From NCBI GenBank assembly GCA_034520885.1, contig JAXHNE010000007.1, positions 118,827-182,826 on the forward strand: 64,000 bases of DNA, written 5' to 3'. The translations under genes and the position numbers were made by a program. The notes under the pieces are model-generated. The model had not been told where the DNA came from, made no database searches, and was given only the letters and a program-made list of their open reading frames with translations. The stretch comes from Candidatus Saccharimonadota bacterium (GTDB taxonomy: Bacteria; Patescibacteriota; Saccharimonadia; Saccharimonadales; JAXHNE01). Below, in pieces: positions 4,643 to 63,145 of the stretch (positions are counted from its first letter, which is position 1; the number at the start of each line of letters is the position of its first letter).

Positions 4643-4670
4643 AGCTTTCAGCTTTCAGCTTTCAGCTTTT
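4643..4670. repeat. heptanucleotide tandem repeat (AGCTTTC x3 + AGCTTTT)
   Basis: Read directly; followed by a CGAACCgggGGTTCG hairpin. Confidence 0.9.
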
Positions 4671-4693
4671 AGCTACGAACCGGGGGTTCGTTG

Positions 4694-5263
4694 ATGTATC
4701 AAATATGCATATCGGGAGCGGCCAAAGGCAAAAGCGTGGAGGAAGGCCGCGAACTGGCCATTAAAGCCGGGAAAGCCGTGGCCGAAGCCGGACACAGTTT
4801 ACTGACCGGTGCCACAATCGGACTGCCCAACTACGCCGCGGAAGGCTACAAGAAAGCCGGCGGAAAAATGAGCGTAGGGATTAGTCCGGCGGCCAGCAAG
4901 ATTGAGCACGTGGCCAAATACCGTTTACCGACCGAAGCCTACGACACGATTTTATTTACCGGCTTGCACTACATCGGCCGGGACAGCTTATTGATTCAAT
5001 CCAGCGACGCGGTGATAAGTGTCGGCGGGCGCCTGGGGACACTACATGAGTTTACTATCGCCATGGAAACCGATACGCCGATTGGCTTTTTGCAGGGGGC
5101 CGGTGGTATCAGTACGCAGATAATGGATATTTTGCACGCCGCTGGACACCATGATTCTCCGAATGACTCGCTGGTATTCGCGGAAACGGGCCAAGAACTC
5201 GTCGCCAAACTAGTGGCCATCCTTAATAAATCCAACAAAAAATACGCCAAGTTATATAAGTAA
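4694..5263 (+). CDS. TIGR00725 / LOG-SLOG-like Rossmann-fold protein
   Basis: ICISGAAKG... N-terminus and GGRLGTLHEF motif typical of the LOG/DprA-like (SLOG) superfamily; ATG at 4694 directly follows TTG at 4691. Confidence 0.6.
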   Translation: MYQICISGAAKGKSVEEGRELAIKAGKAVAEAGHSLLTGATIGLPNYAAEGYKKAGGKMSVGISPAASKIEHVAKYRLPTEAYDTILFTGLHYIGRDSLLIQSSDAVISVGGRLGTLHEFTIAMETDTPIGFLQGAGGISTQIMDILHAAGHHDSPNDSLVFAETGQELVAKLVAILNKSNKKYAKLYK

Positions 5264-5272
5264 GGAAGCTAC

Positions 5273-5899
5273 GTGAAAACCGATAAACGCGTTCACAAAG
5301 TGGTCAGCACCGTCATATTGGTCATTGTCGTGGGCATTGTCGCCATGTTGTGGTATTTAAGTTCGGTCGAAGATAATATAACGCGCACCGATGTTCCGGA
5401 AATAACCGATACTTCCGAAACCGAAGTAACCGACTTCGCCTCGTGCGTGGAAGCCGGCAACCCGGTCATGGAAAGCTACCCGGAGCAATGTTCCGCGAAC
5501 GGGGTAACCTACGTGAACCCGGAGCAACGGCGGGAATCGGAAGCGCAAGCTCAGCCGAGCACCGGTATCATTAGCGGTGAAGCGGGCTACCCCAGTGAAA
5601 GGCTCCCCGAGGATTTGGAAATATGCCTTGAATCGGTCGAAACCAACGAAATCGTTGGCGAATGCCACGAAGTGAATGTCGCGGATTACTCAATCGAAGC
5701 GCCGGAAGGTACCTTTTACGTATTTGCCCGTACGCAAGATAGGCCGGATTACCGGGCTTACTACAACGAATTCGTGGAATGCGGTTTACGTGCCGACTGT
5801 CCGAAAAGCGGGCATCAGGCATTAATTGGGGTAGAGGTTACGTCCGGTGGAACGGTCGAAGGAGTCAATCCCAATGATTGGTACGACACCTCTCAGTAA
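5273..5899 (+). CDS. hypothetical membrane-anchored or secreted protein
   Basis: GTG start behind aaggaag SD; N-terminal hydrophobic helix VVSTVILVIVVGIVAMLWYL; Cys-containing acidic ectodomain. Confidence 0.55.
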   Translation: MKTDKRVHKVVSTVILVIVVGIVAMLWYLSSVEDNITRTDVPEITDTSETEVTDFASCVEAGNPVMESYPEQCSANGVTYVNPEQRRESEAQAQPSTGIISGEAGYPSERLPEDLEICLESVETNEIVGECHEVNVADYSIEAPEGTFYVFARTQDRPDYRAYYNEFVECGLRADCPKSGHQALIGVEVTSGGTVEGVNPNDWYDTSQ

Positions 5900-5917
5900 A
5901 ATTGCTACAATGGTGGG

Positions 5918-7882
5918 ATGAACCGCTTTCAGCTGAAGTCACAGTACGATCCGCAGGGTGATCAACCCCAAGCTATCGAAGCCCTGATTAAAGGGCTGGA
6001 TGCCAAACAAAAAGAGCAAACTTTGCTCGGGGTGACCGGTTCGGGCAAGACGTTCACTATGGCCAACGTGATCCAGTCCGTACAAAAGCCCACGCTGGTT
6101 TTATCGCATAACAAAACTTTGGCCGCACAGCTCTATAGTGAGTTCAAGCAGTTTTTCCCGGATAACGCGGTGCACTATTTCGTGAGTTACTTCGATTATT
6201 ATCAGCCGGAAGCTTACATTCCGCGCAGCGATACCTACATCGAAAAAGACAGCCAAATTAACGAGGAAATCGACCGCCTGCGCCATGCCGCCACCGACGC
6301 GTTGCTGTCTCGGCGGGACGTGATTATCGTGGCCAGTGTGAGCTGCATTTACGGTATCGGTTCCGTGGAAGATTACGACGGGTTGTCCATTCACCTGAAA
6401 AAGGGCGAACGCCGCGTGCGGGATAAATTCCTGCGGCAACTGACGGACATTCAATACCAACGCAACGATACCGACTTTCACCGCAGCACTTTTCGGGTAC
6501 GCGGCGACGTGGTGGATATTTTCCCCGCCGGCGAGGAAGCCGCTTACCGCGTGGAATTTTTCGGGGATGAAGTTGATCGGCTCACCCGGATCAACGCCTT
6601 GACCGGTGAGATTGAGGCCGACCAAAACGAACTGCGCATTTTCCCGGGCAGCCACTACGTGACCAGCCAGGACAAACTCAAGATTGCCCTGGGCCAAATC
6701 GAACACGAATTGCAAGAACGGCTCGCTCAGTTCAAACGTAATAATCAGTTACTGGAAGCCCAGCGGCTGGAGCAACGAACCCGTTTTGACCTGGAAATGC
6801 TGGAAGAAACCGGCTTCGTAAAAGGCATCGAAAACTACAGCCGCTACTTGACCAACCGCGAGCCCGGCGAGCAACCCGCCACGCTTTTGGATTACTTTCC
6901 GGATGATTACCTGATGTTCGTTGACGAATCACACATGACCATCCCGCAAGTGCGCGGCATGTACAATGGCGATCGCGCCCGCAAAGAAGTGCTAGTAGAA
7001 CACGGCTTTCGGCTGCCCAGCGCCCTGGATAACCGTCCGCTGCAATTCAGTGAATTCGAGCGCCATATCAATAATGTGGTGTACGTCAGCGCCACGCCGG
7101 CGGAATACGAATTAAGCCGCAGCGGTAAACCGATTGAGCAAGTCATTCGCCCCACCGGCCTGCTTGATCCGCCAATCGAAGTCCGGCCCATCAAAGGCCA
7201 AATTGACGATCTGATCGACGAAATAAAAGCCACCGTGGATAAGCGCCAGCGCGTGTTAGTGACCACGCTGACCAAACGCATGGCGGAGGACTTAACCGAA
7301 TATTTACAGGACGAAGACATCAAAGTCACGTACTTACACAGCGATATCGAGACGTTAGAGCGCACCGACATCCTGCGCGATCTGCGCCTGGGTACGTATG
7401 ACGTGGTGGTGGGGATCAACTTGCTGCGAGAAGGGCTGGACTTGCCGGAAGTTAGCCTGGTGGCCATTTTGGACGCCGACAAAGAAGGCTTCTTGCGCAG
7501 TGAGCAGGCACTGATCCAAACCGTCGGCCGCGCCGCCCGGCATCAGGAGGGCAGAGTAGTGATGTACGCCGACACCGTCACCAAAAGTATGCGGCGCACC
7601 ATGGACGAAACTACCCGCCGCCGGGAAATCCAAAAAGCTTACAACGACGAACACGGCATCACGCCCAAAGGCATCGCCAAAGCGGTGGAAAAAGGCTTGC
7701 GCCCCGACCTACCGGAAGAAGCCAAGACCGCCAAGCTGGATCTTAAAAAAGTACCCAAAGACGAATACAAACAGATCGTTAAGGACTTAAGCGCGCAAAT
7801 GGACTTGGCCAGCAAAAACCTGGAATTCGAAAAAGCCGCGGAGCTCAGAGACATTATTGCCGAAGTCAAGTCAAAACTCTGA
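5918..7882 (+). CDS. uvrB: excinuclease ABC subunit B
   Basis: 654 aa; Walker A GVTGSGKT, helicase motifs, C-terminal UVR motif; TACAAT 6 nt upstream of ATG. Confidence 0.95.
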
Positions 7883-7940
7883 CCCCGCCCGAAATTCTGA
7901 GTGGAGCAGTCCGCAACCGGATTGCGAAACGCCAAAATTT

Positions 7941-7988: not shown

Positions 7989-8030
7989 TCATCAGCACCA
8001 ATCTGAAGTTTGAAACGGGAGACATACATT

Positions 8031-8074
8031 AACTCCGATTTAAATCGGAGTTAACTCGGAGTTCGGTGGTGTCG
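8031..8074 (+). repeat. palindromic 11-mer element, copy 1 (AACTCCGAtttaaaTCGGAGTTAACTCGGAGTTcggtggtgtcg)
   Basis: Read directly; shares core and 3' flank with six other copies. Confidence 0.9.
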
Positions 8075-8153
8075 TTCTTATTTAAGATGTTAAATGTCGG
8101 AGGCGGGGGTTATTTTTATTTGTCGTAGTAGTGGTGGGGGGCGGAAAAACAGG

Positions 8154-8182
8154 TTGACACAAACAAAGAAAAGTTGTAATAT
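8154..8182 (+). promoter_or_regulatory. sigma70-type promoter (TTGACA-17-TAATAT) for the 8190 cassette gene
   Basis: Consensus -35, 17-nt spacer, -10 ends 7 nt before ATG 8190. Confidence 0.6.
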
Positions 8183-8189
8183 GCAGCTT

Positions 8190-8945
8190 ATGAGTGAAGT
8201 ACTAAGAGGGCTTACTTTTACAGGTGGCGATCAAGCTGCTACAAATGCAGCCGCCGAAGCACCGTTTAGCGTAACTGAGCGCACCGACTTGGCGGTTGCG
8301 GCTTTCGGCTCTTTAGGCCAGATAGACAAGGCGCAACTGACCGAAGAAGTTGGCATGCACATGCAACAACTTCACGAAGGCCTTCACGGACAGTACGACA
8401 AAAACGACGTAGAGCCATTCATGTCGATTAACCTGTCTGATAGCTTTCCGCTTGCTGCGCTTGTGGTCGCGTTTGACAGACAGCAACAGGCAAAAACCTA
8501 CGTTTACGAACCATTTTGGAGTCAGTACAGCCCGGCGGAACTAAACAGCCGAAGTCTGGACAGTGCATCGGCACGTCAAGACATTACGGCTTCAGCCCGT
8601 GCTATGCTTACCGCCACTGATTACGAAGGTGAGTCTGGCCTGCGGTTTCCAAGCAAAAAAGGTAAAGATCAGTCCAATTTAGCTCAAGATCACGAACTAG
8701 TGAACCCAGCTGATTACATCATTCTGAATGCGCAACGACGCGAAGCCGGCGAGCCACTACTAGACACCCGAACCTTCACCCGTTTTGTGCAACTGGCTAT
8801 GAAGCCGGCTGGCGGGGCTGACGGCAGCACTTGGATTCCGGACGCGGGTTCCGGCCGCGGTCAGTTGAGCCTGCGCGGGGGGTCGTGCGACCATGCGATT
8901 CCGCACGCTGGTGTCCGTCTCTCGGTGGGGCGAAACCAGGCTTAA
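8190..8945 (+). CDS. hypothetical protein (cassette gene bracketed by palindromic elements)
   Basis: ORF 8094..8945; start moved to ATG 8190 because the consensus promoter lies inside the longer ORF; no recognisable domain. Confidence 0.5.
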   Translation: MSEVLRGLTFTGGDQAATNAAAEAPFSVTERTDLAVAAFGSLGQIDKAQLTEEVGMHMQQLHEGLHGQYDKNDVEPFMSINLSDSFPLAALVVAFDRQQQAKTYVYEPFWSQYSPAELNSRSLDSASARQDITASARAMLTATDYEGESGLRFPSKKGKDQSNLAQDHELVNPADYIILNAQRREAGEPLLDTRTFTRFVQLAMKPAGGADGSTWIPDAGSGRGQLSLRGGSCDHAIPHAGVRLSVGRNQA

Positions 8946-8996: not shown

Positions 8997-9053
8997 CGAA
9001 CTCCGAGTTAAATCGGAGTTAACTCGGAGTTAACTCGGAGTTCGGTAGTATTG
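8997..9053 (+). repeat. palindromic 11-mer element, copy 2 (one extra AACTCGGAGTT unit)
   Basis: cgAACTCCGAGTTAAATCGGAGTTAACTCGGAGTTAACTCGGAGTTcggtag read directly. Confidence 0.9.
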
Positions 9054-23590: not shown

Positions 23591-24112
23591 ATGGAGTCTT
23601 TAGTCCAAAAAATTGAAGCCAAGCACAAAAAAGCGCAGGTCGTGGACGTACGTTCCGGTGACACCGTTGAAGTGCATCAAAAAGTTCAGGAAGCCGGCAA
23701 AGAACGTATCCAGGTATTCAAAGGCACGGTGATTCGCGTGGATCGCAAAAACAGCCTGACCTCACGAATTCTGGTGCGTCGTATCGCCAGTGGCGTGGGC
23801 GTAGAAAAGAGCTTTTTGCTACACAGCCCGCTGGTTACCAAGATTGAAGTCACTAAGCGCAGTAAAGTGCGCCGTAATTACCTAACTTACATGCGTAAGC
23901 GAACCGGTCGCTCCGCCCGGCTCAACAGCCTTGATTTTGACCGCGAAGCGGTAAATACCGTACGCGACGAAGCCGCGGAAAAAGCCGAAGAAGAAGCAAA
24001 GGCCAAAGTCGCCGCCGAACACGAAGCCGTCGAAGCCAAAAAAGCCGAGGAAGAAAAGAAGCTCGAAGAAAAAGCCGATCAAGCCCTCAAAAACCGCGAA
24101 ACGGAAAGCTAG
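23591..24112 (+). CDS. rplS: 50S ribosomal protein L19 with a Lys/Glu/Ala-rich C-terminal extension
   Basis: VVDVRSGDTVEVHQKV...IQVFKGTVI core; about 55 extra C-terminal residues. Confidence 0.9.
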   Translation: MESLVQKIEAKHKKAQVVDVRSGDTVEVHQKVQEAGKERIQVFKGTVIRVDRKNSLTSRILVRRIASGVGVEKSFLLHSPLVTKIEVTKRSKVRRNYLTYMRKRTGRSARLNSLDFDREAVNTVRDEAAEKAEEEAKAKVAAEHEAVEAKKAEEEKKLEEKADQALKNRETES

Positions 24113-24147
24113 TTGTTAGTCCACAGTCATTCGTTTATAGTTTGAGT
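24113..24147. repeat. heptad-periodic tract (ttgttag tccacag tcattcg tttatag tttgagt)
   Basis: T-N4-AG pattern every 7 nt, directly after the rplS stop. Confidence 0.7.
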
Positions 24148-24510: not shown

Positions 24511-24529
24511 TAACAAAAGACCAAAGACT
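24495..24529. repeat. heptad-periodic tract (taagact aatgact gataaca aaagacc aaagact)
   Basis: Spans the four-helix-bundle stop and the first codons of rnhB. Confidence 0.65.
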
Positions 24530-25425: not shown

Positions 25426-25520
25426 TTATATAACAGTTTATAGTTGTCAGTCTTCAGTTGTCCGTTCTCAGTCTTCAATCAGCAGATTACAGACAACAAA
25501 TCACGGATAACAATTCAAAA
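25426..25520. repeat. heptad-periodic tract (~13 units: tcagtct tcagttg tccgttc tcagtct tcaatca gcagatt acagaca ...)
   Basis: nCAGnnn recurs every 7 nt, directly after the yraN stop. Confidence 0.75.
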
Positions 25521-25549: not shown

Positions 25550-25591
25550 AATAATATTAGAATTAATACTAGAGTTAATTCTAGTATTATT
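25550..25591. other. AT-rich 17-bp inverted repeat (AATAATATTAGAATTAA-N8-TTAATTCTAGTATTATT)
   Basis: One mismatch; possible bidirectional terminator between yraN and the pepN 3' side. Confidence 0.5.
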
Positions 25592-44850: not shown

Positions 44851-44958
44851 AATGAGCAATGAAAATCGAGCAAAGAGCAATGAGTTATAAAAACCTGCCC
44901 CGCGGTAGACTTTCAACTTTCAACTTTCAACTTTCTACTCAGCGAGCGGAGCGAGCCT
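44851..44958. repeat. three consecutive heptad tracts (aatgagc-type x5; tttcaac x3 + tttctac; cagcgag/cggagcg)
   Basis: Fills nearly the whole recG-to-next-gene spacer. Confidence 0.8.
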
Positions 44959-46498: not shown

Positions 46499-46583
46499 GG
46501 CGCGGTGGTGGAATTGGTAGACACGCTAGTTTTAGGAACTAGTATCGCGAGATGTGAGAGTTCGAGTCTCTCCCGCGCCACCA
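46499..46583 (+). tRNA. tRNA-Leu (anticodon TAG), type II with a long variable arm and encoded CCA
   Basis: Acceptor GGCGCGG/CCGCGCC, anticodon stem CTAGT/ACTAG with loop TTTAGGA, T-arm GAGAGTTCGAGTCTCTC, discriminator A + CCA. Confidence 0.9.
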
Positions 46584-46649
46584 AAACTTGACTACGGGAC
46601 ACGCTAGTCCAAAACCGTAAAAACCTTAAGATTCAAATCGCACTTTGAA

Positions 46650-46700
46650 CCGAACTCCGAGTTAAATCGGAGTTAACTCGGAGTTATGGTATGGTGTCGG
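46650..46700 (+). repeat. palindromic 11-mer element, copy 3
   Basis: ccgAACTCCGAGTTAAATCGGAGTTAACTCGGAGTTatggtatggtgtcgg, 67 nt after the tRNA-Leu. Confidence 0.9.
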
Positions 46701-46795
46701 TTTTTTGTTGGATAGTTTGCACAAAATTCAGGAGTGAAGGGGAATTCTCAGTATACGAACTAAAACAAGGGTCAGCATGTTAAAATACGGTTAAT

Positions 46796-49700: not shown

Positions 49701-49810
49701 CCGAACTCGACGCCCAAATCCAAAAAACCAATAACGAAATCGATCAACTAGTGTACAAACTTTACAACCTTACCCCCAAAGAGATACAGATTGTTGAAAC
49801 TGGAGCTTAA
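46796..49810 (+). CDS. type IIG/IIL restriction-modification enzyme (fused PD-ExK nuclease, N6-adenine methyltransferase and specificity domain; MmeI/Eco57I-like)
   Basis: 1004 aa; N-terminal LPDAV...VVELKG (PD-(D/E)xK), SAM motif VLDPACGSGAFLV, catalytic VVGNPPWV, C-terminal TaqI-like specificity region (LLNSRLITWLFRN). Confidence 0.85.
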   Translation: MANLFGKNRLSEKAAEINTDEIIDFIEIVKTWHADCHDGSLKNDKETSREQEYNQSFFKNILGYKEKPTVPYNFEPKATTKTGHLPDAVISYTDKSNDIENIAAVVELKGASVDLDRPQRREGNMSPVQQGFKYKTLYRNCPFVVVSNFWEFRLYHDNLLDYEVWTLDDLVNPDDDYILFKTWYTLLKRENFTAKKGASKTEDLLSDIRIEQEEIGKDFYKVYKKARLSLLRDIIEQNQVKRGEIDLAIEKTQKIIDRIVFACFAEDRGLFPDDTLRRVIKSADESDFDSSLWFTFKAFFESVNSGSEKLGIADGYNGGLFAHDAELNNLKVGDRPLRQIAELGGYNFVEDLSVTILGHIFEQSISDLEEIKNKVNEKQGLDAIQQSRRKKDGIFYTPDYIVRYIVDNSLGAYLREAEERLKDEFRLHGDINEKNYEKRERQAYGKYQDFLQNVKVLDPACGSGAFLVYVFDYLLAENKRVASILGNSLFSSEDYIKDILRNNIYGVDLNEESVEITKLSLWLKSAQKGKKLTSLDDNIKCGNSLIDDPEIASDKAFDWQKEFPSIFADGGFDVVVGNPPWVSLGGKHGQKVSDDELKYYIEKYNGNTYMPNLFEYFINLGINLLSTDGYFAMIVPDRFGINGVFNKLRKQIWQKHTLVEVVYKWDFPFIVTDTMTFVIKKQVANKQKVAIKANPKSDSIFLTNSEIDEDSYGFKAFKSKQSKKLIDKILDGGVSLSEVAKTTSGFGGRSKLITIKRVSPEQREILKGQSIGRYLVKDRLYFEFTDENVTGRTRDENKLSARPKVLLRKTGSEIIASFDDTGAYPEQSLYFLYSFADKVQPLYILALLNSRLITWLFRNNYITNADSTPQLKNIDLDKFPIVIADNKTQAQIAELASGIVEKSKTLYTNSQKLNRLVSVEFSFDKLPAKLNRWWTLDFADFANALKVKLSLQQKDELLQLFEKYRTECAELDAQIQKTNNEIDQLVYKLYNLTPKEIQIVETGA

Positions 49811-50661
49811 TGGACGGCTTATTTAACCATAGAGAGATAGCCGTAGGGCTGTGGTTAGCAGTACTTATAGTCTTTGCTGCTAGTAAAAAGGTAGTGCGCT
49901 CATCGTTTGTAGATGTTCTTAAAGCATTCTTCATGCCAAAAATAATCATACCGCTGTTACTGTCATTTGCGCCTATCTTGCTGGTAGTGTGGCTGTTGGC
50001 ATACTTCAATCTTTGGGACTTATCTGTACTTAAAGAGACAATCTACTGGGTTATTGGTACGGGAATAATAATGTTCGGTAAGTTTAATGATGTTAAAAAT
50101 GTAAAGACACTATACAAACAGACAGCAAAAGAAACTCTAGCGTTAGTGGTCTTGCTGGAGTTCGTTATTTGGCTTTACGTATTTCCTTTATGGGCTGAGT
50201 TGATATTAGTGCCGTTTGTAACCTTAATAGTACTACTGGCGACAGTTGCAAAGTATATGAAAACAGACGGTATAGGATTAACACGCAAAGTGCTAAATGG
50301 TATGCAAATATTCATTGGTCTACTTATACTACTATTCGCATTCATCGGCTTTACGAAAAACCCTGCATTGTTATTCACCTTTCAAAACCTAGAACTATTC
50401 TTATTGCCTATAATTTTGTCGTTGACCTACGCGCCGTCAGTGTACCTCATAGCGTTATACAGCAAGTATGAGTTGGTATTTAATCGCATCAATCACTATA
50501 TTTCGCCAGAAATCAAAGATAAACGGTCTATCAAGTTAGCTTGTATTAGACGCTGCGGTTTAAGCTTGCGCACAACTAGTGATATGACACGACACTTAGC
50601 GATTAACTTAACTAACGAGACAACAACCCCACAAGCCCTTAAATTGGTTCGTGATTTTTGA
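49810..50661 (+). CDS. hypothetical polytopic (~7 TM) membrane protein coupled to the RM gene
   Basis: 283 aa; start overlaps the RM stop (TAATG); same AT-rich composition; no known domain. Confidence 0.6.
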   Translation: MDGLFNHREIAVGLWLAVLIVFAASKKVVRSSFVDVLKAFFMPKIIIPLLLSFAPILLVVWLLAYFNLWDLSVLKETIYWVIGTGIIMFGKFNDVKNVKTLYKQTAKETLALVVLLEFVIWLYVFPLWAELILVPFVTLIVLLATVAKYMKTDGIGLTRKVLNGMQIFIGLLILLFAFIGFTKNPALLFTFQNLELFLLPIILSLTYAPSVYLIALYSKYELVFNRINHYISPEIKDKRSIKLACIRRCGLSLRTTSDMTRHLAINLTNETTTPQALKLVRDF

Positions 50662-50776
50662 CCCGAAACAAAAAGAAGCTTTGCTCGACACTAGCGCGTA
50701 GTGCGGCGCCTTTGCCATACCAGCGAAGCTCCAACACTTTTGTCTTTTATGACAGGCGAACCTTAAAAAACACATA

Positions 50777-50979
50777 GCTGAACCTTCAGGCGATAAAAGA
50801 AAAACTGCCCGGCTCAGACCAGTAAAAACATTAATTTACCAGCTTCTTCACCGAACTCCGAGTTAAATCGGAGTTAACTCGGAGTTCGGTGTCGTGTACG
50901 GATTTTCTTTAGTTGGTTTGCGCGAAAGTACAGAGTAGGGCGGGGTACCGCAATCCGGGGTTTAAAGCTCGCTACAATT
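50777..50979 (+). repeat. ~203-bp junction module L1 (contains palindromic element copy 4 at 50849-50891 and ends in TACAAT)
   Basis: Aligns along its whole length with 52831-53033, with scattered substitutions and one 1-nt indel. Confidence 0.9.
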
Positions 50980-51137
50980 ACCAAAAGCGGAGTCTAATAT
51001 AGTATGGGCGGATGCACTCATTTGACATTCGATCAGGACGGGTCTATTCTTACGGAAGGTGATATAAAATATGGGTCTTGCCCGGCAAAGTCTAAAAAAA
51101 GTCTCTCGTCAAAAAAACAACCAAAAGGGGTATCTCT

Positions 51138-52694
51138 ATGGCAAAGTCAAAAGCCAAAAGAACTAAAGCGTCACGTTCCAATAAAAAGAAAAAGCAATCA
51201 TTCGCCCAGAAATTCATGGGCCTCCCCAAAACGGTACTTTTCATTATTGCTTTTGGGCTGGTGGGAGTCGTTGGTCTTGTTATTGCAAGTGCCGGCCCGA
51301 ATTACAGTATGTCCCACAAACATTTAAATACGGAAAAATCAGTCAATGCCACAAAAGTTAAAGAAACCCGTGACAGCAAACGAAATGCAAAAGTAGTAGA
51401 AATAAAAAATAACTCAGAAGAGTCCGTTGCTAAAGCAACAATTTCACGCGACGTACCAGCAGGTACCTACGAAGTTTGTCTTATTGGTGTTGCTCAATCA
51501 GGTAGCCCAACGGGTACGTTCAGTGCGCGAGAATTTACTACCAGAACGGGTAATGATCTAGGGGTGACTACCTACACGGCAAAATCCGGAGGTGATTACG
51601 AAGAACTAGCATGTTTAAGTTTTGAGCATAAGGAAGGTGATAGCTCGCATTTGGCTCTATATGTCACTAACACGAATCCAGACACTTCGCTGAGGATAAG
51701 TGTCATCTCAGTAGAAGAGGTTGAAGGCAATGATACGGACGTGTCAATTGACGAGGAGCCAACTGATCCTCCGTCAACTGACCCCGGCGATTTGACTACC
51801 CTCTCGGGCTCACGGGCAATAAAGGCTTCATGCAATACGAAGGCACAGTACAATGGGACAAACCCACGCAATAACTTCCCAACGGATATTACGACCGGCC
51901 CGGAAGCCTCCGGCATCAACGAAGAGGCTTTACCAAGCTCAGGCCACTCCGGATCATGGACTATTTCACGAAACGGCGCAGTTGTTGACGGTGTTTTCCA
52001 TAACGGCAGTATTAATGTCAAAGCAGACAATGTAACAATAAAAAACAGTGTCATCTGCGGTAACTCAAGCATAATTGTTGACAACGATGGCAAAAACTTA
52101 CGTATTGAAAATTCAATAATTCGAGGCGAAGATAACGGTTCAGGTGACTGTGGTGCTGCTATAGCCCAAGGAAACTATAAAATGTACAACACAGAAGTAA
52201 CTTATTGTGCTGACGGTGGTAAGTTGAATGGTGTTGTCGAGATTTACAACTCATGGTTCCACGATTTTTTCACTAATCGCTACGGGAACGGAGGAGGTAC
52301 TCACAACGATACCTTACAGAAAAACAAAAACCCAAGTCTCGACCGGCTAATCGTTAAAGGCAATAGCATGTATCAAGACCCTTGTACCAGTAACCGACAC
52401 CTGCAAATGGGTGGACCGGATGAGTCAAGTCTCACGATTCCTTACTTAAGGTGGGAGGACAACTTTATGTATGGCATCAGAGGCTTCTATAAAGATGACA
52501 ACGTGCATGTAAGCGATGGTTTGATCTCTGGCAACACATTTGCAGGTAGTGCAACCAAAGGACCTTTCCCTACAGCTGGTTTATACAGCTGGGGTAATGG
52601 AACGCCAATACCGCGTAATGGAAATCTGTTCGAAAGTGGGCAAAATGCTGATGAAAATCCAAGTAGAAGTTCATATAACTGCACGAACATTTAA
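51138..52694 (+). CDS. membrane-anchored right-handed beta-helix (pectate-lyase/NosD-like repeat) surface protein
   Basis: Basic N-terminus + TM helix VLFIIAFGLVGVVGLVIA. C-terminal half has repeated N-x-(V/I)-x-I-x-N-(S/N) turns (VKADNVTIKNSVICGNSSIIVDNDGKNLRIENSIIRG). aagggg SD. Confidence 0.65.
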   Translation: MAKSKAKRTKASRSNKKKKQSFAQKFMGLPKTVLFIIAFGLVGVVGLVIASAGPNYSMSHKHLNTEKSVNATKVKETRDSKRNAKVVEIKNNSEESVAKATISRDVPAGTYEVCLIGVAQSGSPTGTFSAREFTTRTGNDLGVTTYTAKSGGDYEELACLSFEHKEGDSSHLALYVTNTNPDTSLRISVISVEEVEGNDTDVSIDEEPTDPPSTDPGDLTTLSGSRAIKASCNTKAQYNGTNPRNNFPTDITTGPEASGINEEALPSSGHSGSWTISRNGAVVDGVFHNGSINVKADNVTIKNSVICGNSSIIVDNDGKNLRIENSIIRGEDNGSGDCGAAIAQGNYKMYNTEVTYCADGGKLNGVVEIYNSWFHDFFTNRYGNGGGTHNDTLQKNKNPSLDRLIVKGNSMYQDPCTSNRHLQMGGPDESSLTIPYLRWEDNFMYGIRGFYKDDNVHVSDGLISGNTFAGSATKGPFPTAGLYSWGNGTPIPRNGNLFESGQNADENPSRSSYNCTNI

Positions 52695-52807
52695 ACTACA
52701 ATAAAGTTTTCATGAGTCGTTAATCTTGCATGGTTTACTGGGCTTAAGTAACCAAGAGTCATTAGAGATGCTTATATTGCGGCCAAAGTGCGTAAGCGTG
52801 AGTATAT

Positions 52808-52825
52808 GTTTTCCGTACGGAAAAC
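52808..52825. other. perfect 18-nt palindrome GTTTTCCGTACGGAAAAC after the beta-helix gene
   Basis: Read directly; terminator-like hairpin without a U-tract. Confidence 0.5.
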
Positions 52826-52830
52826 GCGTG

Positions 52831-53033
52831 GCTGAGCTTTCAGGCGATAAAAGAAAAACTGCCCGGCTCAGACCGGTAAAAACATCAATTTACGGACTTC
52901 TCTACGAACTCCGAGTTAAATCGGAGTTAACTCGGAGTTCGGTGTCGTGTACGGATTTTCTTTAGTTCGTTTGCGCGAAAGTGCAGAAGAGGGGCGGGGT
53001 ATTGCAATCCGGGGTTTAAAACCTGCTACAATT
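52831..53033 (+). repeat. ~203-bp junction module L2 (contains palindromic element copy 5 at 52905-52941 and ends in TACAAT)
   Basis: Direct repeat of L1; its TACAAT (53027-53032) sits 8 nt before ATG 53041. Confidence 0.9.
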
Positions 53034-53040
53034 TATGCAA

Positions 53041-53712
53041 ATGAGCGAAACACTTAGGAAAACGGAGAATCCCGAGCATTTCGATGTTCACCATGAAAAC
53101 GGTGAAGCTTTGATGTGCATGTCGAGCGAAGGCGAGTGCCGTGTCCTGGTAGAAATCATGTCGGGGTATACGCCCGAAGAACAGCAGCAGCTTACGGGCT
53201 CTACCACCGGCGCGCTTGAAGCCATTGATCGCTTTACGGACGGTAAAGCCGCGGATATTTTTACCGGTTTGCATATAAAAATTGGCGAGGACGTAACGGA
53301 AGGCGGAGCGAAAACAATCGCCGAGGAAAACCAAGTACTGCTCAGTGGTAGAAAAATGCTTTTGAGCATTGACGAAATGCGCCACGTAAGCGGAGCGTAC
53401 GGCAGCGAAGAGCTTACCGACTTTCCTGACGCACACCGACCTGGCGGCGCACTGGAATACACCCTGGTTCACGAAATAGGGCACGTTCTTGACGGCCAAA
53501 CCCAAGCCGGCGAACCGTACCACCGCGTTTCCGCCAAAGAAAGCCCTACGAAGTACGGACGCGAGTCCGACGAGTGGCACGACAATAAAAGCCACGAAAC
53601 GTTCGCGGAAGGCTTTGCGCACGCAGTTTACGACATGCCCATAAGCGAACCGCTGGAAACCGCCGTACGCGACACAATCAATACGAGGTTACAAGAAGTC
53701 ACCAAAACCTAA
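53041..53712 (+). CDS. HExxH zinc metallopeptidase-like protein (resembles the anthrax-lethal-factor / Pro-Pro-endopeptidase M34-type motif spacing)
   Basis: TLVHEIGHVLD followed ~45 aa later by HETFAEGFAHAV (third-ligand Glu context); no signal peptide; start moved from 53035 to 53041. Confidence 0.55.
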   Translation: MSETLRKTENPEHFDVHHENGEALMCMSSEGECRVLVEIMSGYTPEEQQQLTGSTTGALEAIDRFTDGKAADIFTGLHIKIGEDVTEGGAKTIAEENQVLLSGRKMLLSIDEMRHVSGAYGSEELTDFPDAHRPGGALEYTLVHEIGHVLDGQTQAGEPYHRVSAKESPTKYGRESDEWHDNKSHETFAEGFAHAVYDMPISEPLETAVRDTINTRLQEVTKT

Positions 53713-53755
53713 ACCAAATTTAAAATCTACGAGCGGAAAGAAATAACTAAAACTG

Positions 53756-54178
53756 CTAGAGTTCTTCTTTCCGCTCAGGCCACTCGTGATACGGATATAG
53801 TTCTCGTAACTTAACGGTTTTGTCGCTACTGATTATAACGTCAGCATCCAGACCATCCTCGAGTCTACTAAACATAAAGAGTCTACATGCACCGCACGGG
53901 GGCAAAACATAGACATCTTTTTGAGGATTATTATTCCAAACGGCGACAATCTTTTTTACTTTGTATTCTTTGTTAGTAAACATTTGAGCGATTGCGGTTC
54001 GTTCCGCGCAAGAGCCCACGCCAGAGCCATCGTCAACGCACGCCCCTTTGTAGATATTACCTTTGTCGGTGACTAGAGCCGACCCCACGTCGCCAATCCA
54101 GTCACCCTCAATCTCAATGGGATTAAGTACATCAACCGCTAGTTTTATCAGTTCTTTATTCGATATTTCATTATCCAT
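53756..54178 (-). CDS. cytidine / blasticidin-S deaminase-fold protein
   Basis: 140 aa; zinc motifs CAERTAI and PCGACR at the spacing typical of small tetrameric CDA/BSD enzymes. Confidence 0.8.
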   Translation of the reverse strand: MDNEISNKELIKLAVDVLNPIEIEGDWIGDVGSALVTDKGNIYKGACVDDGSGVGSCAERTAIAQMFTNKEYKVKKIVAVWNNNPQKDVYVLPPCGACRLFMFSRLEDGLDADVIISSDKTVKLRELYPYHEWPERKEEL

Positions 54179-54400
54179 ACTACAACTTTAACAGATTTAT
54201 CCATTTTACTCCGTTGTGTACGTTTCAGTAACTGCTACAGGGCAACACTCTAGGTCTTGTGAGATACCAGAGCTTAACCAAACTTAAAAGCCTACGTTAG
54301 TGAAGTCGGGCATGCTTCGGAGCCAAACCGCAGCTCTTTCTCCGTAACAGCAACCTCAAGCACTCAGGGTATATTTAGCTTTTCTTGTTATAGTAGGGAA

Positions 54401-54766
54401 GTGAACTTAAACGAAACCGATTTACGTGAACTGGAAAAGTTAGAGGAATCGCTTTGGGAGCGGAAAACGCGATTTGACAATGACTACATGAGAAGCGTTT
54501 TGGCCGATGACTTTTTGGAGTTTGGGCGTTCCGGGAAGGTTTACGACCTTGAAGAGTCGTTGTCGGCCCCCGACCAAGAAATCAAAGCAAAGCTACCTCT
54601 TAAAGACTTTTCAGTGCACCAAATTGACGAGACCGTAGCCTTGGTAACCTACGTGAGCCAAGTAGAGTATGACAGTTTAGAAGTTAGCAACCGAAGCTCT
54701 TTGTGGCAGAACACCGGCGAGGGCTGGAAACTCAAGTTTCATCAGGGCACTCCAGTAAATCCATAG
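54401..54766 (+). CDS. NTF2-like (DUF4440/SnoaL-type) protein
   Basis: 121 aa; LADDFLEFGRSGKVY...WKLKFHQGT pattern typical of DUF4440. Confidence 0.7.
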   Translation: MNLNETDLRELEKLEESLWERKTRFDNDYMRSVLADDFLEFGRSGKVYDLEESLSAPDQEIKAKLPLKDFSVHQIDETVALVTYVSQVEYDSLEVSNRSSLWQNTGEGWKLKFHQGTPVNP

Positions 54767-54831
54767 CCGTGTCTAGCTTTTGATCCCAAACAAATGACAA
54801 CTTCTCGCAGGGCATCCCCCTAAAAACAACC

Positions 54832-54870
54832 CACCGAACTCCGAGTTAAATCGGAGTTATGGCTTGTCGT
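54832..54870 (+). repeat. palindromic 11-mer element, copy 6 (short form)
   Basis: caccgAACTCCGAgttaaaTCGGAGTTatggcttgtcg, between convergent genes. Confidence 0.85.
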
Positions 54871-54896
54871 CAGGTCTGTTCGTTGGTTTTTGGGGT

Positions 54897-55583
54897 TCAG
54901 CCACTACTTAAGTGCTCGTGAATAATCTGCCAGTTGCCATCAATTCTTTGTAGAACATTAGTGCCACGACCTGTGTACACTGGTTGTTTGTTATTTACTT
55001 TGCCGTCTAAAGTAAAATCATATACGCATGCGGCGGTATCGTAGTCTCGCGCGAGCCACACAATGTTGTTTATCTTGTATATTCCATCCTGAATATTTTG
55101 GTAGATGCTCTCAAAGGCTTGCCGGATTGATTTGATACCGTGGTAGGTTCCATTCGTAAACCAAAAGACCGCGTCTTTGGCAATCATAGGGGCAACGTTC
55201 TCAAAATCACGTGAGTTGACCGCTTTCTCGTACGCTTGAAGAAGCGTGGTCAGTTCATTGTGAACCTCGGCGTCGCCGTTTGTAGTTATGGGTTCACCCT
55301 TTTTAATTGTTCGAGCGGCAACATCAGCCATTCTTTCTAAGTCCTGGTACGTATTGGCTTTATCTTCAGCGTGATTTACATAACGGCTTGGGCCTCGAAA
55401 CAAAAAGCGCTTGCCCCAAAATGAATGCACATAGGCGTGTTGGCTTTTCGGGAGCAGCTTAAAGTCTGCTTTGGTAATTTCGGTGAGCTCGTATGGCACT
55501 ACTACCTCGTCCTTTTTGAAGTCACGATTAGCTTGGACGCCTTTGCCTCGAAAACTGCCATTTCCGATACTTACGTTATCCAT
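54897..55583 (-). CDS. SET-domain / NTF2-like fusion protein
   Basis: N-terminal ~105 aa has SET features (GKGVQANRDFKKDEVVVPY, YVNHAEDKANT, IKKGEPIT); C-terminal ~115 aa is SnoaL/DUF4440-like (VFWFTNGTYHG...GNWQIIHEHLS). Confidence 0.6.
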   Translation of the reverse strand: MDNVSIGNGSFRGKGVQANRDFKKDEVVVPYELTEITKADFKLLPKSQHAYVHSFWGKRFLFRGPSRYVNHAEDKANTYQDLERMADVAARTIKKGEPITTNGDAEVHNELTTLLQAYEKAVNSRDFENVAPMIAKDAVFWFTNGTYHGIKSIRQAFESIYQNIQDGIYKINNIVWLARDYDTAACVYDFTLDGKVNNKQPVYTGRGTNVLQRIDGNWQIIHEHLSSG

Positions 55584-55676
55584 GCATAGAATTTTAACAG
55601 ATTTTACCTGTTAAAATTCTATGCTAGCGAGGCCTGGATTTATTTGAGCTGAACGAACTTTATCAAAAAGTATTGC

Positions 55677-55720
55677 ACCGAACTCCGAGTTAAATCGGAG
55701 TTATGGTATGGTGTCGGTGG
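55677..55720 (+). repeat. palindromic 11-mer element, copy 7 (short form)
   Basis: caccgAACTCCGAgttaaaTCGGAGTTatggtatggtgtcggtgg; its 3' flank is identical to copy 3. Confidence 0.85.
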
Positions 55721-55755
55721 GTTGGGGTATAAAAACCTTATGCTAAAACGAAAGG

Positions 55756-55947
55756 ATGAATCATATGGGCGCTCGAAAAATGGGTGAGCAACACATTCGC
55801 AGCCTCACGCAAAATAAAACGGGGACGTATCAGGTATCTTTGCCGATACGCGTGATACGGGAAATGGGCTGGCGTGAACGGCAAAAGCTCACCGTAACCC
55901 GCCAAGGTAAAAAACTAATAGTCCAAGACTGGAACCCCCAAACCTAG
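55756..55947 (+). CDS. AbrB/MazE/SpoVT-type DNA-binding protein (antitoxin-like)
   Basis: 63 aa; VSLPIRVIREMGWRERQKLTVTRQGKKLIVQDW swapped-hairpin pattern; the true start may be ATG 55765 (better SD spacing). Confidence 0.6.
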   Translation: MNHMGARKMGEQHIRSLTQNKTGTYQVSLPIRVIREMGWRERQKLTVTRQGKKLIVQDWNPQT

Positions 55948-55982
55948 TAGTTAGTAGATGGTATTTAGTACTTACTTGTTAA
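55948..55982. repeat. heptad-periodic tract (tagttag tagatgg tatttag tacttac ttgttaa)
   Basis: Directly after the AbrB-like stop. Confidence 0.7.
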
Positions 55983-57305: not shown

Positions 57306-57359
57306 ATTTACTCCTTATGTGAAGTAATTATACAGCATTTTCTGGCGAAAACTTGTTTC

Positions 57360-57407
57360 CAAGGAGGCTCCTTGGAAATACTAATAGTCCAAGACTGGGA
57401 AGCGTAG
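57360..57407 (+). pseudogene. remnant of a second AbrB-like gene 3' end (...QGGSLEILIVQDWEA*)
   Basis: The 18-nt ctaatagtccaagactgg is identical to 55915-55932; no upstream start or body. Confidence 0.45.
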
Positions 57408-57423
57408 CGGGCGCTACGCGCAT

Positions 57424-57486
57424 AGATGATAGATGATAGGTGATGGATGGAAGTTGGTAGTTGGAAGATAGTAGTTAGTAGATCGT
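57424..57486. repeat. heptad-periodic tract (~9 units: atagatg atagatg ataggtg atggatg gaagttg gtagttg gaagata gtagtta gtagatc)
   Basis: Read directly; its last 23 nt repeat 55945-55967. Confidence 0.8.
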
Positions 57487-57686
57487 ATTTAAAAAGTCGG
57501 GATTTAGTATTTTTTGTTTCTGAGGTGCCACCCAAGGGAAGTAAGTTATTGCTTAGTTCAAGTTCGACAGTTAGCCTAAAAAGGGGTAGAATATGCTGGC
57601 AATGACACACAATACTGACCTAAACTTGCATCTGCATATGTCGCCTCGTAGAGCCGGCTAGCTTTGCTTTTGTCTTTGATAAACAG

Positions 57687-62124: not shown

Positions 62125-62393
62125 AAAAGAATCCCGAAAACGACTTAATAACACGTGAACCTTCGCGCATGGAACGGGTAGTCAGCCGTTTGGTTCGTCC
62201 GCTTATACAGCCAGTGGTGCGAATAAAAGAAACTGAAGCCGATGTGTTTGTTGACCCGCCAGCGCTCGAACAGCAGTTATCACCCCAAGAGCAAGAGCGA
62301 CTACGTGAAGTTGGCAAAGAGGCTTTTTTTGCAAGCCCCGCACTCGGTATGGCGGTTCACGTACGAAAAGAGCCGGACGAGACAAGGGAGTGA
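62121..62393 (+). CDS. hypothetical small protein
   Basis: 90-aa ORF overlapping the tig stop (ATGA). Confidence 0.4.
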   Translation: MKKNPENDLITREPSRMERVVSRLVRPLIQPVVRIKETEADVFVDPPALEQQLSPQEQERLREVGKEAFFASPALGMAVHVRKEPDETRE

Positions 62394-62394
62394 A

Positions 62395-62421
62395 TTAGCA
62401 CTCGTACTTGACGAGTGCTAA
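62395..62421. promoter_or_regulatory. CIRCE (HrcA operator), perfect consensus, overlapping the clpP promoter
   Basis: TTAGCACTC-gtacttgac-GAGTGCTAA; TTGACG (-35) spans the spacer/right-arm boundary; TAAAAT at 62431-62436 is 7 nt before ATG 62444. Confidence 0.85.
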
Positions 62422-62443
62422 TCGGCGTATTAAAATCCTTATT

Positions 62444-63055
62444 ATGAGCGATAAGCCATCAAGCGTTTTGATTCCGACCGTTATTGAACAGGAAGGCCGC
62501 ATGGAGCGTGCCTACGATATATATTCGCGGCTATTAAAAGACCGCATTATCTTTTTGGGCGATCAAGTCAACGAACACACCGCCAACTTAATCGTGGCCC
62601 AACTTTTATTTTTGGATAACCAGGATTCCGGGAAAGATATCAGCCTTTACATCAACAGCCCTGGCGGTAGTGTTTACGATGCCCTGGCGATTTATGACAC
62701 CATGAACTTCGTAAAAAGCGATATTAAAACCGTGGGTATCGGGGTGCAGGCTTCCGCCGCCGCGTTTTTACTGAGCTCCGGCACCAAAGGCAAGCGTATG
62801 CTTTTGCCGCACGCCACGGTGATGGTGCACCAGCCCTCCAGCGGTACGCGTGGGAAGGTGACCGATCAGGAAATTGATCTTCGCGAGTCTTTGCGCGTCA
62901 AAGGATTGTTGGAAAACATTATGGCCCAAAACACCGGCCAAACCGCCAAAACCATTCACCGGGACATGGAACGTGACAAATGGATGGACGCCGAAGAATC
63001 CGTCAAATACGGCATAGCCGACAAAGTCATCAAAACCCTCCCCACTAAAAAATAG
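62444..63055 (+). CDS. clpP: ATP-dependent Clp protease proteolytic subunit
   Basis: [12 protein letters not shown], catalytic Ser context ([11 protein letters not shown]) and His (VMVHQPS); internal ATG of ORF 62408..63055. Confidence 0.95.
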
Positions 63056-63103
63056 CTCAAAAACAACTCACTACTTAAAGGAACCCCCCGTCTAAGTTAA
63101 GTC

Positions 63104-63145
63104 AGTTGAAAGTAGTTAGTTAACAGTCAACAGCCAAAACCGCCT
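63104..63145. repeat. heptad-periodic tract (agttgaa agtagtt agttaac agtcaac agccaaa accgcct)
   Basis: Downstream of clpP. Confidence 0.7.

Follow-up and report, generated by a model that had tools for sequence, protein, structure and literature searches.

Tandem heptanucleotide arrays in the intergenic DNA of a Saccharimonadales bacterium and their association with a four-helix-bundle gene cassette

Intervening sequences (IVSs) of 23S rRNA are removed by RNase III without ligation, and 23S_rRNA_IVP open reading frames (ORFs) are present in rRNA insertions of the candidate phyla radiation (CPR) (10.1101/2024.02.27.582315). In the IVS of Coxiella, 2-3 GACAGAT heptamers, their number differing among strains, lie ahead of the S23p ORF, a 28-bp stem bounds the element and RNase III cuts at the first repeat (PMC4990558). 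Heptamers have also been described outside rRNA. The short tandemly repeated repetitive (STRR) sequences of cyanobacteria are 7-bp repeats of unknown function, capable of forming hairpins (PMC2670836), and heptanucleotides have been reported as the most abundant long simple sequence repeats (SSRs) in many bacteria, where they are attributed to polymerase slippage (Mrazek 2007, as summarized in PMC4679880 and PMC4692102). TAACTGA repeats, found in marine Beggiatoaceae, cyanobacteria and Bacteroidetes with a patchy spread that suggests horizontal transfer, occur as 2-6 copies directly upstream of starts lacking canonical ribosome-binding sites, and those of Beggiatoaceae have been proposed as translational or regulatory elements (PMC4679880), as have the heptamers of Nostoc (bioRxiv 10.1101/2022.06.06.494920). 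The GGGAATC and GGGGA(T/C)T heptamers of Xanthomonas and Nostoc are intergenic, sometimes form inverted pairs, and vary in length between close relatives (PMC4692102). Here we analyze a stretch of 64,000 nucleotides (the window) from contig JAXHNE010000007.1 of a Saccharimonadales metagenome-assembled genome (MAG), a CPR host as had been surmised, in which heptanucleotide arrays occupy several intergenic spacers and two of them, inverted with respect to each other, bracket a gene for a four-helix-bundle (4HB) protein.

Genes of the window were defined by a greedy longest-ORF rule, with five dubious small ORFs overlying repeats dropped, and the resulting non-coding set amounted to 7.2 kb in 29 spacers. 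Base autocorrelation in this set was z = 5.5 at lag 7, compared with 0.6 and 0.2 at the adjacent lags 6 and 8, and the harmonics of 7 were also raised (z = 2.2 at lag 14 and 4.3 at lag 21). A local scan based on a lag-7 match/mismatch score, with dinucleotide-type shuffles as nulls, gave 11 spacer tracts at a score of at least 8 versus 0.49 in shuffles, and 8 at a score of at least 10 versus 0.12, while other lags (5, 6, 8, 9, 10, 13) yielded 0-2 local spacer tracts each. Eleven of the 14 lag-7 tracts of the whole window are non-coding, though 89% of the window is coding and 11% non-coding. Tandem Repeats Finder (TRF), used for array calls, returned period-7 arrays without indels (0%) at 4643, 26026, 26048, 44909, 55945, 57422 and 57448; the sole other period that is not a multiple of three was 11, due to a separate dispersed palindromic element described below. 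The initial annotation had listed twelve sub-tracts of strict 7-nt periodicity, and when each was judged by a binomial test on its lag-7 matches ten were significant singly (P from 4e-11 to 9e-4), the other two being 'TnnnnAG' at 24113 (P = 0.13) and 'CAGCGAG' at 44941, whose period is 9. The strictness of the period is borne out by the lack of indels and by a signal specific to lag 7, and a comparison of period 7 with periods 6 and 8, proposed there as a means of refutation, gave an excess at lag 7 with values near zero at the other two, and so does not refute the claim. Its extent had been overstated: the supported tracts occupy 8 spacers rather than at least ten, those at 25426 and 26048 lying in the same one, and the arrays measure 4-11 units instead of 4-13. 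With a chance origin rejected by the autocorrelation, shuffle and per-tract tests, the tracts are head-to-tail heptanucleotide tandem arrays, predominantly intergenic.

The most informative arrays are those around the 4HB gene, which together with it form what will be called the cassette:

T2, 24110 to 24141, + strand: decayed array TAGTTGT TAGTCCA CAGTCAT TCGTTTA TAGT; 5' arm of the cassette
4HB gene, 24142 to 24510, + strand: PF05635, 23S rRNA intervening-sequence protein family
T3, 24488 to 24528, + strand: array TAAGAAC TAAGACT AATGACT GATAACA AAAGACC AAAGAC; 3' arm of the cassette, inverted relative to T2

The 4HB ORF matches PF05635 with E = 6.8e-34 over 105 of 106 profile positions, and its product is like MDZ7786166.1 (99% over 98% of the query), a protein encoded on a 190-kb contig of a Candidatus Saccharibacteria MAG and named 'four helix bundle protein' at NCBI. 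Rfam detects zero rRNA in the window, and the cassette is located between rplS and rnhB, not in a 23S rRNA helix. Within its 5' arm are the TAG at which rplS stops (24110-24112) and a TTGTTA-17-TATAGT resembling a promoter; its 3' arm (P = 2e-4) runs across the last bases of one ORF and the first of the following one, covering the 4HB stop TGA (24508-24510) and the rnhB start ATG (24503). The arms are mutually inverted, with TAGT in the 5' arm against ACTA in the 3' arm, and minimum free energy (MFE) folds predict that they close the entire ORF in a stem, by pairing of 24110-24120 with 24499-24509. The predicted dG of the arm duplex is -18.8, versus -9.5 +/- 2.8 for shuffles, 0.4% of which equal it.

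The closest 4HB homologue (63% identity) is found in two independent samples of another Saccharibacteria lineage (loci L043 and L044), where it lies in the same operon but at the rnhB|yraN junction instead of rplS|rnhB. L043 has three heptamer tracts in 9.8 kb, two of which flank the 4HB gene, and both flanks are homologous to those of the window: AAGTTGTTAGTCCAYAGTC..GTTTATAGT is common to the 5' flanks, with about 33 nt nearly identical, and AACTAAG(G)ACTA..ACTAATGACTNAYAAC to the 3' flanks. The 5' flank of L043 is a clear TAGTNNN x4 array, and by this homology the weak 'TnnnnAG' tract at 24113 can be recognized as a decayed TAGTNNN array. In L043 the arms are also predicted to enclose the whole ORF, and the dG of their duplex (-28.3) was equalled by 0 of 500 shuffles. 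In both lineages the upstream gene takes its stop TAG from the 5' arm (rplS in the window, rnhB in L043) and the ATG of ACTAATGACT, inside the 3' arm, serves as start of the downstream gene (rnhB and yraN, respectively), so that the RNase HII of the window begins MTDN and the YraN of L043 begins MTNN. Relatives have neither of these beginnings; the N-terminus MTDNKRPKT of the window RNase HII is missing in them, their RNase HII beginning M(K)GIGIDEVGRG. The rnhB gene call available for contigs of the Logan collection began downstream of the catalytic DEVGRG motif, so it dropped this motif; no start other than the T3 ATG at 24503 is plausible for rnhB.

A tblastn search with the window 4HB protein against 72,556 plasmids matched 28 records, nearly all from cyanobacteria (Nostoc, Calothrix, Anabaena, Trichormus and others) plus Riemerella, and 15 loci were examined. 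The gene typically sits between operon partners: ribonucleotide reductase (RNR) beta|alpha, cas6|cas4 (twice), cmr2|cmr3 and an ABC secretion pair. In 13 of these 15 loci lag-7 arrays are present at both ends of the 4HB gene, the downstream array reverse-complementing the upstream one, as in these pairs:

(AGTAGGG)8 upstream, (TACTCCC)5 downstream
(AGGTGAC/AGGGAAC)39 upstream, (CTGTCAC)4 downstream
(TCAGGAG)n upstream, (CTGACTC)n downstream
(AACAGGG)n upstream, (CTGTTCC)n downstream
Riemerella, (GGTTTAA)3 upstream, (TAAACCT)8 downstream

Of the 96 tracts pooled from 16 loci, 28 are no more than 130 nt away from a 4HB end, versus about 2.8 expected, and the score of the flank against the reverse complement of the opposite flank tops all of the approximately 300 control positions in 11 of 16 loci. 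Thirteen inverted array pairs enclose a 4HB gene and another 13 are ORF-less. An association of the tracts with 4HB selfish genes, which the initial annotation had put forward for checking, is seen in the window, in one more lineage of Saccharibacteria and in plasmids of cyanobacteria and Bacteroidota, all with inverted arrays bracketing the gene; of the GIY-YIG genes put forward beside it, none was found among the approximately 40 ORFs scanned. The PF05635 genes inside CRISPR-Cas operons (two of type I-D, cas6|cas4, and one of type III-B, cmr2|cmr3) or between RNR subunits are those of loci L046, L048, L056 and L045, and reported 'CRISPR-linked 23S rRNA IVP' associations may reflect selfish insertion rather than function.

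Comparison with ten other Saccharibacteria loci (166 kb) indicates that the tracts are of limited distribution. At a score of at least 10 these relatives, one of them syntenic, hold 1 tract versus 9 in the 64 kb of the window, and the notion of a general spacer feature of CPR or Saccharibacteria genomes is rejected; control loci from outside the Saccharibacteria gave 11 tracts in 395 kb, most of them low-complexity stretches rich in A/T. By RNase HII the nearest relatives show 67-73% identity, and the proposed comparison between strains found no close relative in the collections searched, the best RNase HII match being 73%; look-ups of exact proteins led back only to the same sample or came back empty. 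The syntenic locus L032 has the order dnaE-CAP-T2SSE-malic-rplS-rnhB-yraN-pepN-nusA-clpC-radA. Its rplS-rnhB spacer, 61 nt long versus 462 nt in the window, has no 4HB gene but carries a stem-loop with a T-run behind it, which looks like an intrinsic terminator; yraN and pepN overlap in L032, versus a 766-nt spacer in the window. Window tracts are located in these two enlarged spacers. Upstream of clpC, the operator known as controlling inverted repeat of chaperone expression (CIRCE) and the promoter are conserved in relatives, as is the ClpC N-terminus, but CIRCE lies at -79 to -87 in relatives versus -145 in the window, and relatives have a Shine-Dalgarno sequence (SD) 7-10 nt before ATGATG. 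These tract-poor and shorter spacers of relatives argue that the window tracts are recent, lineage-specific additions. The 4HB gene is missing from the rplS-rnhB junction in L032, L033 and L003-L009, and tblastn found none anywhere in the set of loci that includes the ten tract-poor relatives; this absence, together with the different junction used in L043/L044, gives the gene an insertion-like sporadic distribution. The tracts are confined to the lineage of the window and at least one other 4HB-bearing Saccharibacteria lineage.

The remaining tracts of the window are the following:

T1, 4643 to 4677, + strand: (AGCTTTC) x4.6, near-perfect; AGC family
T4, 25433 to 25511, + strand: 11 units shortly after the yraN stop, T4a (CAGTYKT) followed by the partly inverse T4b (CAGAYWA)
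T5-T7 and proximal motifs, 26026 to 26194, - strand: downstream of the pepN stop
T8, 32139 to 32161, + strand: weak array AGCTGAG AGCTAAA AGCGGAA, lag-7 score 8
T9, 32208 to 32238, + strand: (nnAGCTA) x4.4, P = 5e-5, adjoining the conserved clpC start ATGATG
T10, 44851 to 44885, + strand: (AATGAGC) x5, P = 9e-4, beginning 2 nt past the recG stop
T11, 44907 to 44941, + strand: (AACTTTC) x4.4, near-perfect, 22 nt ahead of the next start codon
T12, 55945 to 55981, + strand: TAGTAGT TAGTAGA TGGTATT TAGTACT, P = 5e-5
T13, 57421 to 57487, + strand: 9.4 units (AGATGAT... AGTTGGW... TAGTAGTTAGTAGATCG), P = 4e-11
T14, 63104 to 63138, + strand: AGTTGAA AGTAGTT AGTTAAC AGTCAAC AGCCAAA, P = 1.5e-4

The identities given to the neighbouring genes in the initial annotation (rplS, rnhB, yraN/UPF0102, pepN/M1, recG, clpC and a MazE/AbrB-like ORF) were confirmed, and its statement that most tracts begin right after a stop codon holds only roughly: it is exact for recG, the MazE-like ORF, pepN and rplS, whereas the distance is 8-10 nt for yraN and 49 nt for clpP.

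Several of these tracts have AGT-type units. T4 (P = 3e-9), which stands out by its RNA fold (z = -2.7), has GTTTATAGT and AGTTGTCAGT in common with the cassette 5' arm, and from their sequences T4a and T4b appear as a hairpin-like pair without an ORF, T4a resembling that arm. On the pepN side, the minus strand reads TAG-TAGTTGGAAGATGG, a GC hairpin, CATAGGTGAGAGATAATAGATGA, (AGATGGA)n and (AAGTAAn)n; the CCATCTT array (P = 3e-6) was found by TRF, and AGTAGTTGGA lies at the pepN stop. The MazE/AbrB-like ORF 55756-55947 (63 aa, with a MazE Pfam match slightly under cutoff) has its stop codon in the first unit of T12. Both T12 and T14 contain AGTAGTTAGT exactly and resemble the cassette 5' arm. 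T13 comes after a GC hairpin and the truncated 3' end of a MazE-like sequence, and is paralogous both to T12 and to the arrays on the pepN side. The MazE/AbrB-like ORF and its truncated 3'-end copy (57353-57405, ..LIVQDW..) are each followed by related heptamer arrays. Among the AGC-type tracts, T1 (96% matches by TRF; 24/28 at lag 7, P = 5e-10) ends about 17-20 nt upstream of the start of a SLOG/LDcluster4 gene, as identified by Pfam, and T11 (95% matches, P = 9e-8) has a unit one base different from that of T1. T8 directly follows the clpC -10 box, within the 5' untranslated region (UTR), and T9 fills the gap from the SD-like GAGGGTGG to the clpC ATG. The unit family of T10 recurs as GAGCAAA x4 after the GAPDH stop, 3 kb upstream of the window (Logan contig L040, 6677-6706).

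An independent assembly, the Logan contigs of run SRR26473340, was 100% identical to the window wherever compared, bar one mismatch in L042 outside the tracts. T1, T3, T7, T10, T11 and T14 are exactly reproduced (T1 in L040 and T14 in L039), and all the tracts present in both assemblies are identical between them, so an assembly artefact can be rejected. Two Logan contigs have an end on a tract, L001 stopping at 25441 (inside T4) and L041 starting at 26096 (at the T6/T7 junction); these are 2 of the 8 known contig ends, the tracts covering about 1% of the window, and both breaks could stem from read-level heterogeneity in repeat length.

The units resemble one another beyond their common period. 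Pairs of unit consensus sequences alike at 6 or more of 7 positions make up 10% of the total versus 2.3% under a random-heptamer null, and some loci (T13 and the pepN side, T12 and T13) have exact 10-23-mers and a flanking GC hairpin in common. AGTWGTTAGT occurs exactly four times in the window, always on the + strand and inside tracts (0.15 occurrences of the near-identical pattern AGTAGTTRGW are expected by shuffling), and GTTTATAGT is found twice, in the cassette 5' arm and T4, versus 0.25 expected. In one alignment (A4), T4, T12, T13, T14 and the motif at the pepN stop fall in heptad register with the cassette 5' arm. T4, T12, T13, T14 and the pepN-side tract can be read as ORF-less or solo arm-like arrays, a reading based on short matches, since T4, T12, T13 and T14 match the arm over 9-10-mers only. 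Purines predominate on the sense strand of the arrays, where the dinucleotide most often locked in phase is AG, with 11 of 16 sub-tracts versus 3 antisense. Mismatches are even over the seven columns in every array, with no column-specific conservation detected; this even spread gives no sign of a conserved binding core, and the decay of the arrays looks neutral. For most tracts no structure is predicted (MFE 0 to -7), T4 being an exception, and none has an Rfam match.

On balance we favour, with somewhat better than even confidence, the explanation that the tracts are STRR-type arrays, at least part of which represent the arms and relics of IVS-like 4HB cassettes, expanding by slippage and decaying neutrally. 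The autonomous form would be the PF05635 gene at 24142-24510, inserted between rplS and rnhB with two mutually inverted heptamer arrays around it. Transcribed together with the host operon, its arms would pair into a stem closing off the ORF, and since both are tandem repeats, pairing could take place in any register and the gain or loss of whole units would be tolerated. By analogy with the IVSs of 23S rRNA, the stem may be cleaved by RNase III, and the cassette RNA would thereby be freed from the RNA on either side; mobility is likewise suggested by analogy. The damage caused by insertion would be mended by the arms, as the upstream gene would stop at the TAG of the 5' arm and the downstream gene start at the ATG of the 3' arm. 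Arrays would lengthen or shorten by replication slippage and decay by point mutation, and the other AGT-type tracts (T4, T12, T13, T14 and those on the pepN side) would be ORF-less or solo arms left behind. The AGC-type tracts (T1, T8-T11) are not accounted for by this model, though they might be part of the system of the cassette arms; the AGCTAAA unit of T8 and T9 is also the arm unit of a Calothrix 4HB gene (L047), a match that is suggestive only.

Several observations weigh against this explanation. The window has a single 4HB gene, to which just two tracts are physically linked; T1, T8-T11 and the L040 tract have no sequence in common with the cassette arms and show no inverted pairing. 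Within the Saccharibacteria, the association of 4HB genes with heptamers comes from two lineages compared with ten, of which 10-20 kb each were sampled. The 5' arm of the window is too decayed to be significant alone, the closing stem has only 11 bp, G-U pairs included, and whole-element folds are no more stable than shuffles (z about 0). Moreover, 68 of the 96 tracts in the cyanobacterial loci do not adjoin a 4HB gene, so the arrays could be a general genome property that 4HB elements share or exploit. Partner 3' arms for T12-T14 were not found, and a search for footprints of target-site duplication gave no supporting evidence.

A wider version of the explanation, which we regard as doubtful and offer tentatively, would make the heptamers of cyanobacteria, Bacteroidota and Saccharibacteria and of the Coxiella IVS the arms or ORF-less derivatives of one IVS-like class of mobile cassettes, the autonomous form of which encodes PF05635. 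The heptad would then have been selected because tandem arms pair in any register and because 7 equals 1 modulo 3, so that TAG or TAATG units would provide stops or starts in all three frames; the cassette could in this way lodge in operons (rplS|rnhB, cas6|cas4, cmr2|cmr3, RNR beta|alpha) without killing genes. Both Saccharibacteria cassettes and the AGT family, rich in TAG, agree with the idea of three-frame stops, which is kept as speculation; as a general rule it was rejected, since T1, T11, the L040 tract and several cyanobacterial arms, such as TCAGGAG and AACAGGG, do not fit. PF05635, the '23S rRNA IVS protein' family, is large and, to our knowledge, has no known function. If true, this wider version would provide a function for a large orphan protein family and an origin for an unexplained class of repeats. 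Should the link between cassettes and arrays be general, it would give STRR-type repeats a testable origin as arms or relics of IVS-like cassettes, point to a way for a selfish gene to sit harmlessly inside an operon, and supply a rule for annotation, by which period-7 arrays in inverted pairs would point to such cassettes and to displaced start codons.

The alternative that fares best is that the tracts are ordinary heptanucleotide microsatellites, arising by slippage in a favoured 7-nt register wherever frameshifts are tolerated, then growing, decaying and giving rise to arrays nearby, with neither a function nor a mobile origin, the cassette merely carrying arrays of this kind. Its premise agrees with heptanucleotides being reported, in the summaries of Mrazek's work, as the most abundant class of long SSRs in many bacteria (PMC4679880, PMC4692102), and the restriction of the arrays to non-coding DNA, the coexistence of perfect (T1, T11) and degenerate ones, the compound arrays lying side by side, the uniform mismatches across columns, the many unit types and the AGC-type tracts without any link to the cassette are all as slippage predicts. 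It leaves unexplained, however, the recurrence of units at distant loci described above (unit similarity, shared 10-23-mers and hairpin), the homology of the 4HB arms between lineages at different sites and the inverted array pairs around 4HB ORFs, far above chance; in addition, syntenic relatives that also encode DnaE (L032) are without the tracts. We consider it a possible explanation, though clearly less probable than relics of 4HB cassettes.

Unlikely, in our opinion, is a regulatory role in which the arrays serve as cis-acting sites, on RNA or DNA, for a periodic factor that binds single strands (for instance ribosomal protein S1, a cold-shock protein or a CsrA-like factor) and would adjust the translation of neighbouring genes or the stability of their transcripts. 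Such a role has been proposed for similar repeats (PMC4679880; bioRxiv 10.1101/2022.06.06.494920), and it would suit the mostly unstructured tracts, the phase-locked AG of the sense strand and the position of T9, adjoining the clpC ATG, and of T3, containing that of rnhB, both without an SD where relatives have one at clpC. A missing SD beside a tract is nevertheless weak evidence of function, given that a strong SD is present at just 15 of the 56 window starts (27%) and many genes look leaderless. The units fall in at least six families, and that of T1 versus T8 is found in both orientations relative to transcription; no array column is conserved above random decay, positions vary (right after stops, 20-250 nt before starts, divergent promoters) and the orthologous spacers of relatives have no tracts. 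Of three specific candidates, an AG core as binding motif is considered weak, given the common descent of the families and a pooled test that loses significance once the choice of phase is allowed for. The other two were rejected: a CtsR-type heptad operator at clpC/clpP is at odds with the conserved CIRCE of the clpC promoter, the location of T14 downstream of clpP and the wrong spacing, and UAG-N4 sites of the HutP or TRAP kind do not agree with units that vary so much and lack any conserved column.

Phase variation, in which changes in unit number would switch the neighbouring genes and which the initial annotation listed among possible functions, is very improbable: although heptamer number before the S23p ORF differs among Coxiella strains (PMC4990558) and two of the eight Logan contig ends (25441, 26096) fall on tracts, the arrays are short (4-11 units), mostly degenerate (73-96% matches) and, where both assemblies cover them, identical in the two; they lie in UTRs and 3' flanks where a change of 7 nt shifts no reading frame, and their neighbours (clpC, rnhB, recG, pepN, clpP) are housekeeping rather than surface or restriction-modification genes.

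Other features of the window were recorded in the course of the analysis. The CIRCE element (TAGCACTC-N9-GAGTGCTAA, 32094-32120) overlaps the clpC promoter (32103-32130, promoter score 11/12) and is also present upstream of clpC in L003, L004, L009 and L032; this conserved overlap implies control of clpC by HrcA. TATAAT-like boxes are located about 5-12 nt before many starts (for example 10649, 18638 on the minus strand, 35772, 46796, 53035, 54401, 56056 and 63205), and these boxes, with the scarcity of SDs, suggest that leaderless mRNAs may be widespread in this genome. The yraN-pepN spacer contains a 53-nt direct repeat, 94% identical (25637-25689 and 25762-25814), small hairpins, a 12-nt AT-rich palindromic repeat at 25552-25589 and an ORF (25678-26013) without Pfam matches, which may be the debris of a gene or element. 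The region 30959-31531 encodes a P/Q-rich low-complexity protein, called as a TM2 domain in Logan, with DNA repeats of period 9/12/15 (31028-31076).

The palindromic element with an 11-nt internal period mentioned above reads CACCGAACTCCGAGTTAA-ATCGGAG-TTAACTCGGAGTTCGGTG and has these copies:

palindromic element: 8029-8063, 8999-9042, 46649-46693, 50849-50891, 52905-52944, 54831-54860 and 55676-55704

It can form an 18-bp perfect hairpin (predicted dG about -30), has no Rfam match and flanks single genes, such as 8094-8945 and 51138-52694. It is also found in the 4HB-bearing L043 (about 2800-2835) and in L034-L038, five metagenome contigs of differing GC. A metagenome scan with this element as lineage marker returned five short contigs, with zero tracts in them. 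A low-GC island (46499-55750, 0.40-0.46 versus about 0.52 elsewhere) begins directly behind tRNA-Leu (46499-46583). A restriction-modification gene of MmeI/Eco57I type (46796-49810) lies in it, along with several ORFs for which Pfam gives no match, and the palindromic element divides it into cassette-like units. A direct repeat of about 210 nt (50767-50979 and 52821-53033) surrounds the gene 51138-52694. No integrase was seen in the window.

Comparison with described systems places the window cassette closest to the IVSs of 23S rRNA from Coxiella, Leptospira, Brucella and Xanthomonas. The ORF is of the same family, PF05635; complementary ends enclose it in a stem; as in Coxiella, tandem heptamers lie immediately upstream of it; and both have a sporadic distribution that looks horizontally acquired. 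Unlike those IVSs, the window element lies in a protein-coding operon (rplS|rnhB) and both its arms are heptamer arrays overlapping the stop and start codons of the neighbours; excision by RNase III has been shown for rRNA IVSs only (PMC4990558) and would apply to the window by analogy. The STRR1-3 units form no tandem in the window. The comparison with cyanobacterial STRRs drawn in the initial annotation is nonetheless apt with respect to head-to-tail intergenic 7-nt units and several unit families per genome. STRRs can form hairpins when paired (PMC2670836; PMC4692102), and STRR-type arrays of cyanobacterial plasmids bracket 4HB genes exactly as in the window; the differences are the Saccharibacteria host, the shorter (4-11 versus up to 39 units in L046) and more degenerate arrays, and the fact that most window arrays are single instead of in inverted pairs.

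Resemblance to the other repeat classes is partial. As far as can be judged from later accounts (PMC4679880; PMC4692102), the long SSRs of Mrazek's class are like the window tracts in the over-representation of period 7 versus 4-11, the mainly intergenic location and the scattered phylogeny; in the same accounts the class is a statistical description based on slippage, without linkage to a cassette, inverted pairing or sequence shared between loci. The TAACTGA system has one dominant unit, while the window has no TAACTGA tandem and only 2 of approximately 13 tracts (T9, T3) touch a start codon. The published units of Nostoc and Xanthomonas are not present as tandems in the window, with only 2-unit near-matches at T3, T7 and T14. 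The minus strand of T7 has GGGGAAT GGGGATT, akin to G-quadruplex-type heptamers; window units are, in contrast to these, mostly A/T-rich, without four successive G-tracts, and a quadruplex is not expected. In the literature covered, which is incomplete, we found no paper that links PF05635 to heptamer arrays generally and none on heptamers in Saccharibacteria. Relative to all these systems, what may be new here is the location of an IVS-like gene in an operon, the double heptamer arms that give stop and start codons to its neighbours, and an association across phyla that possibly explains where such repeats originate.

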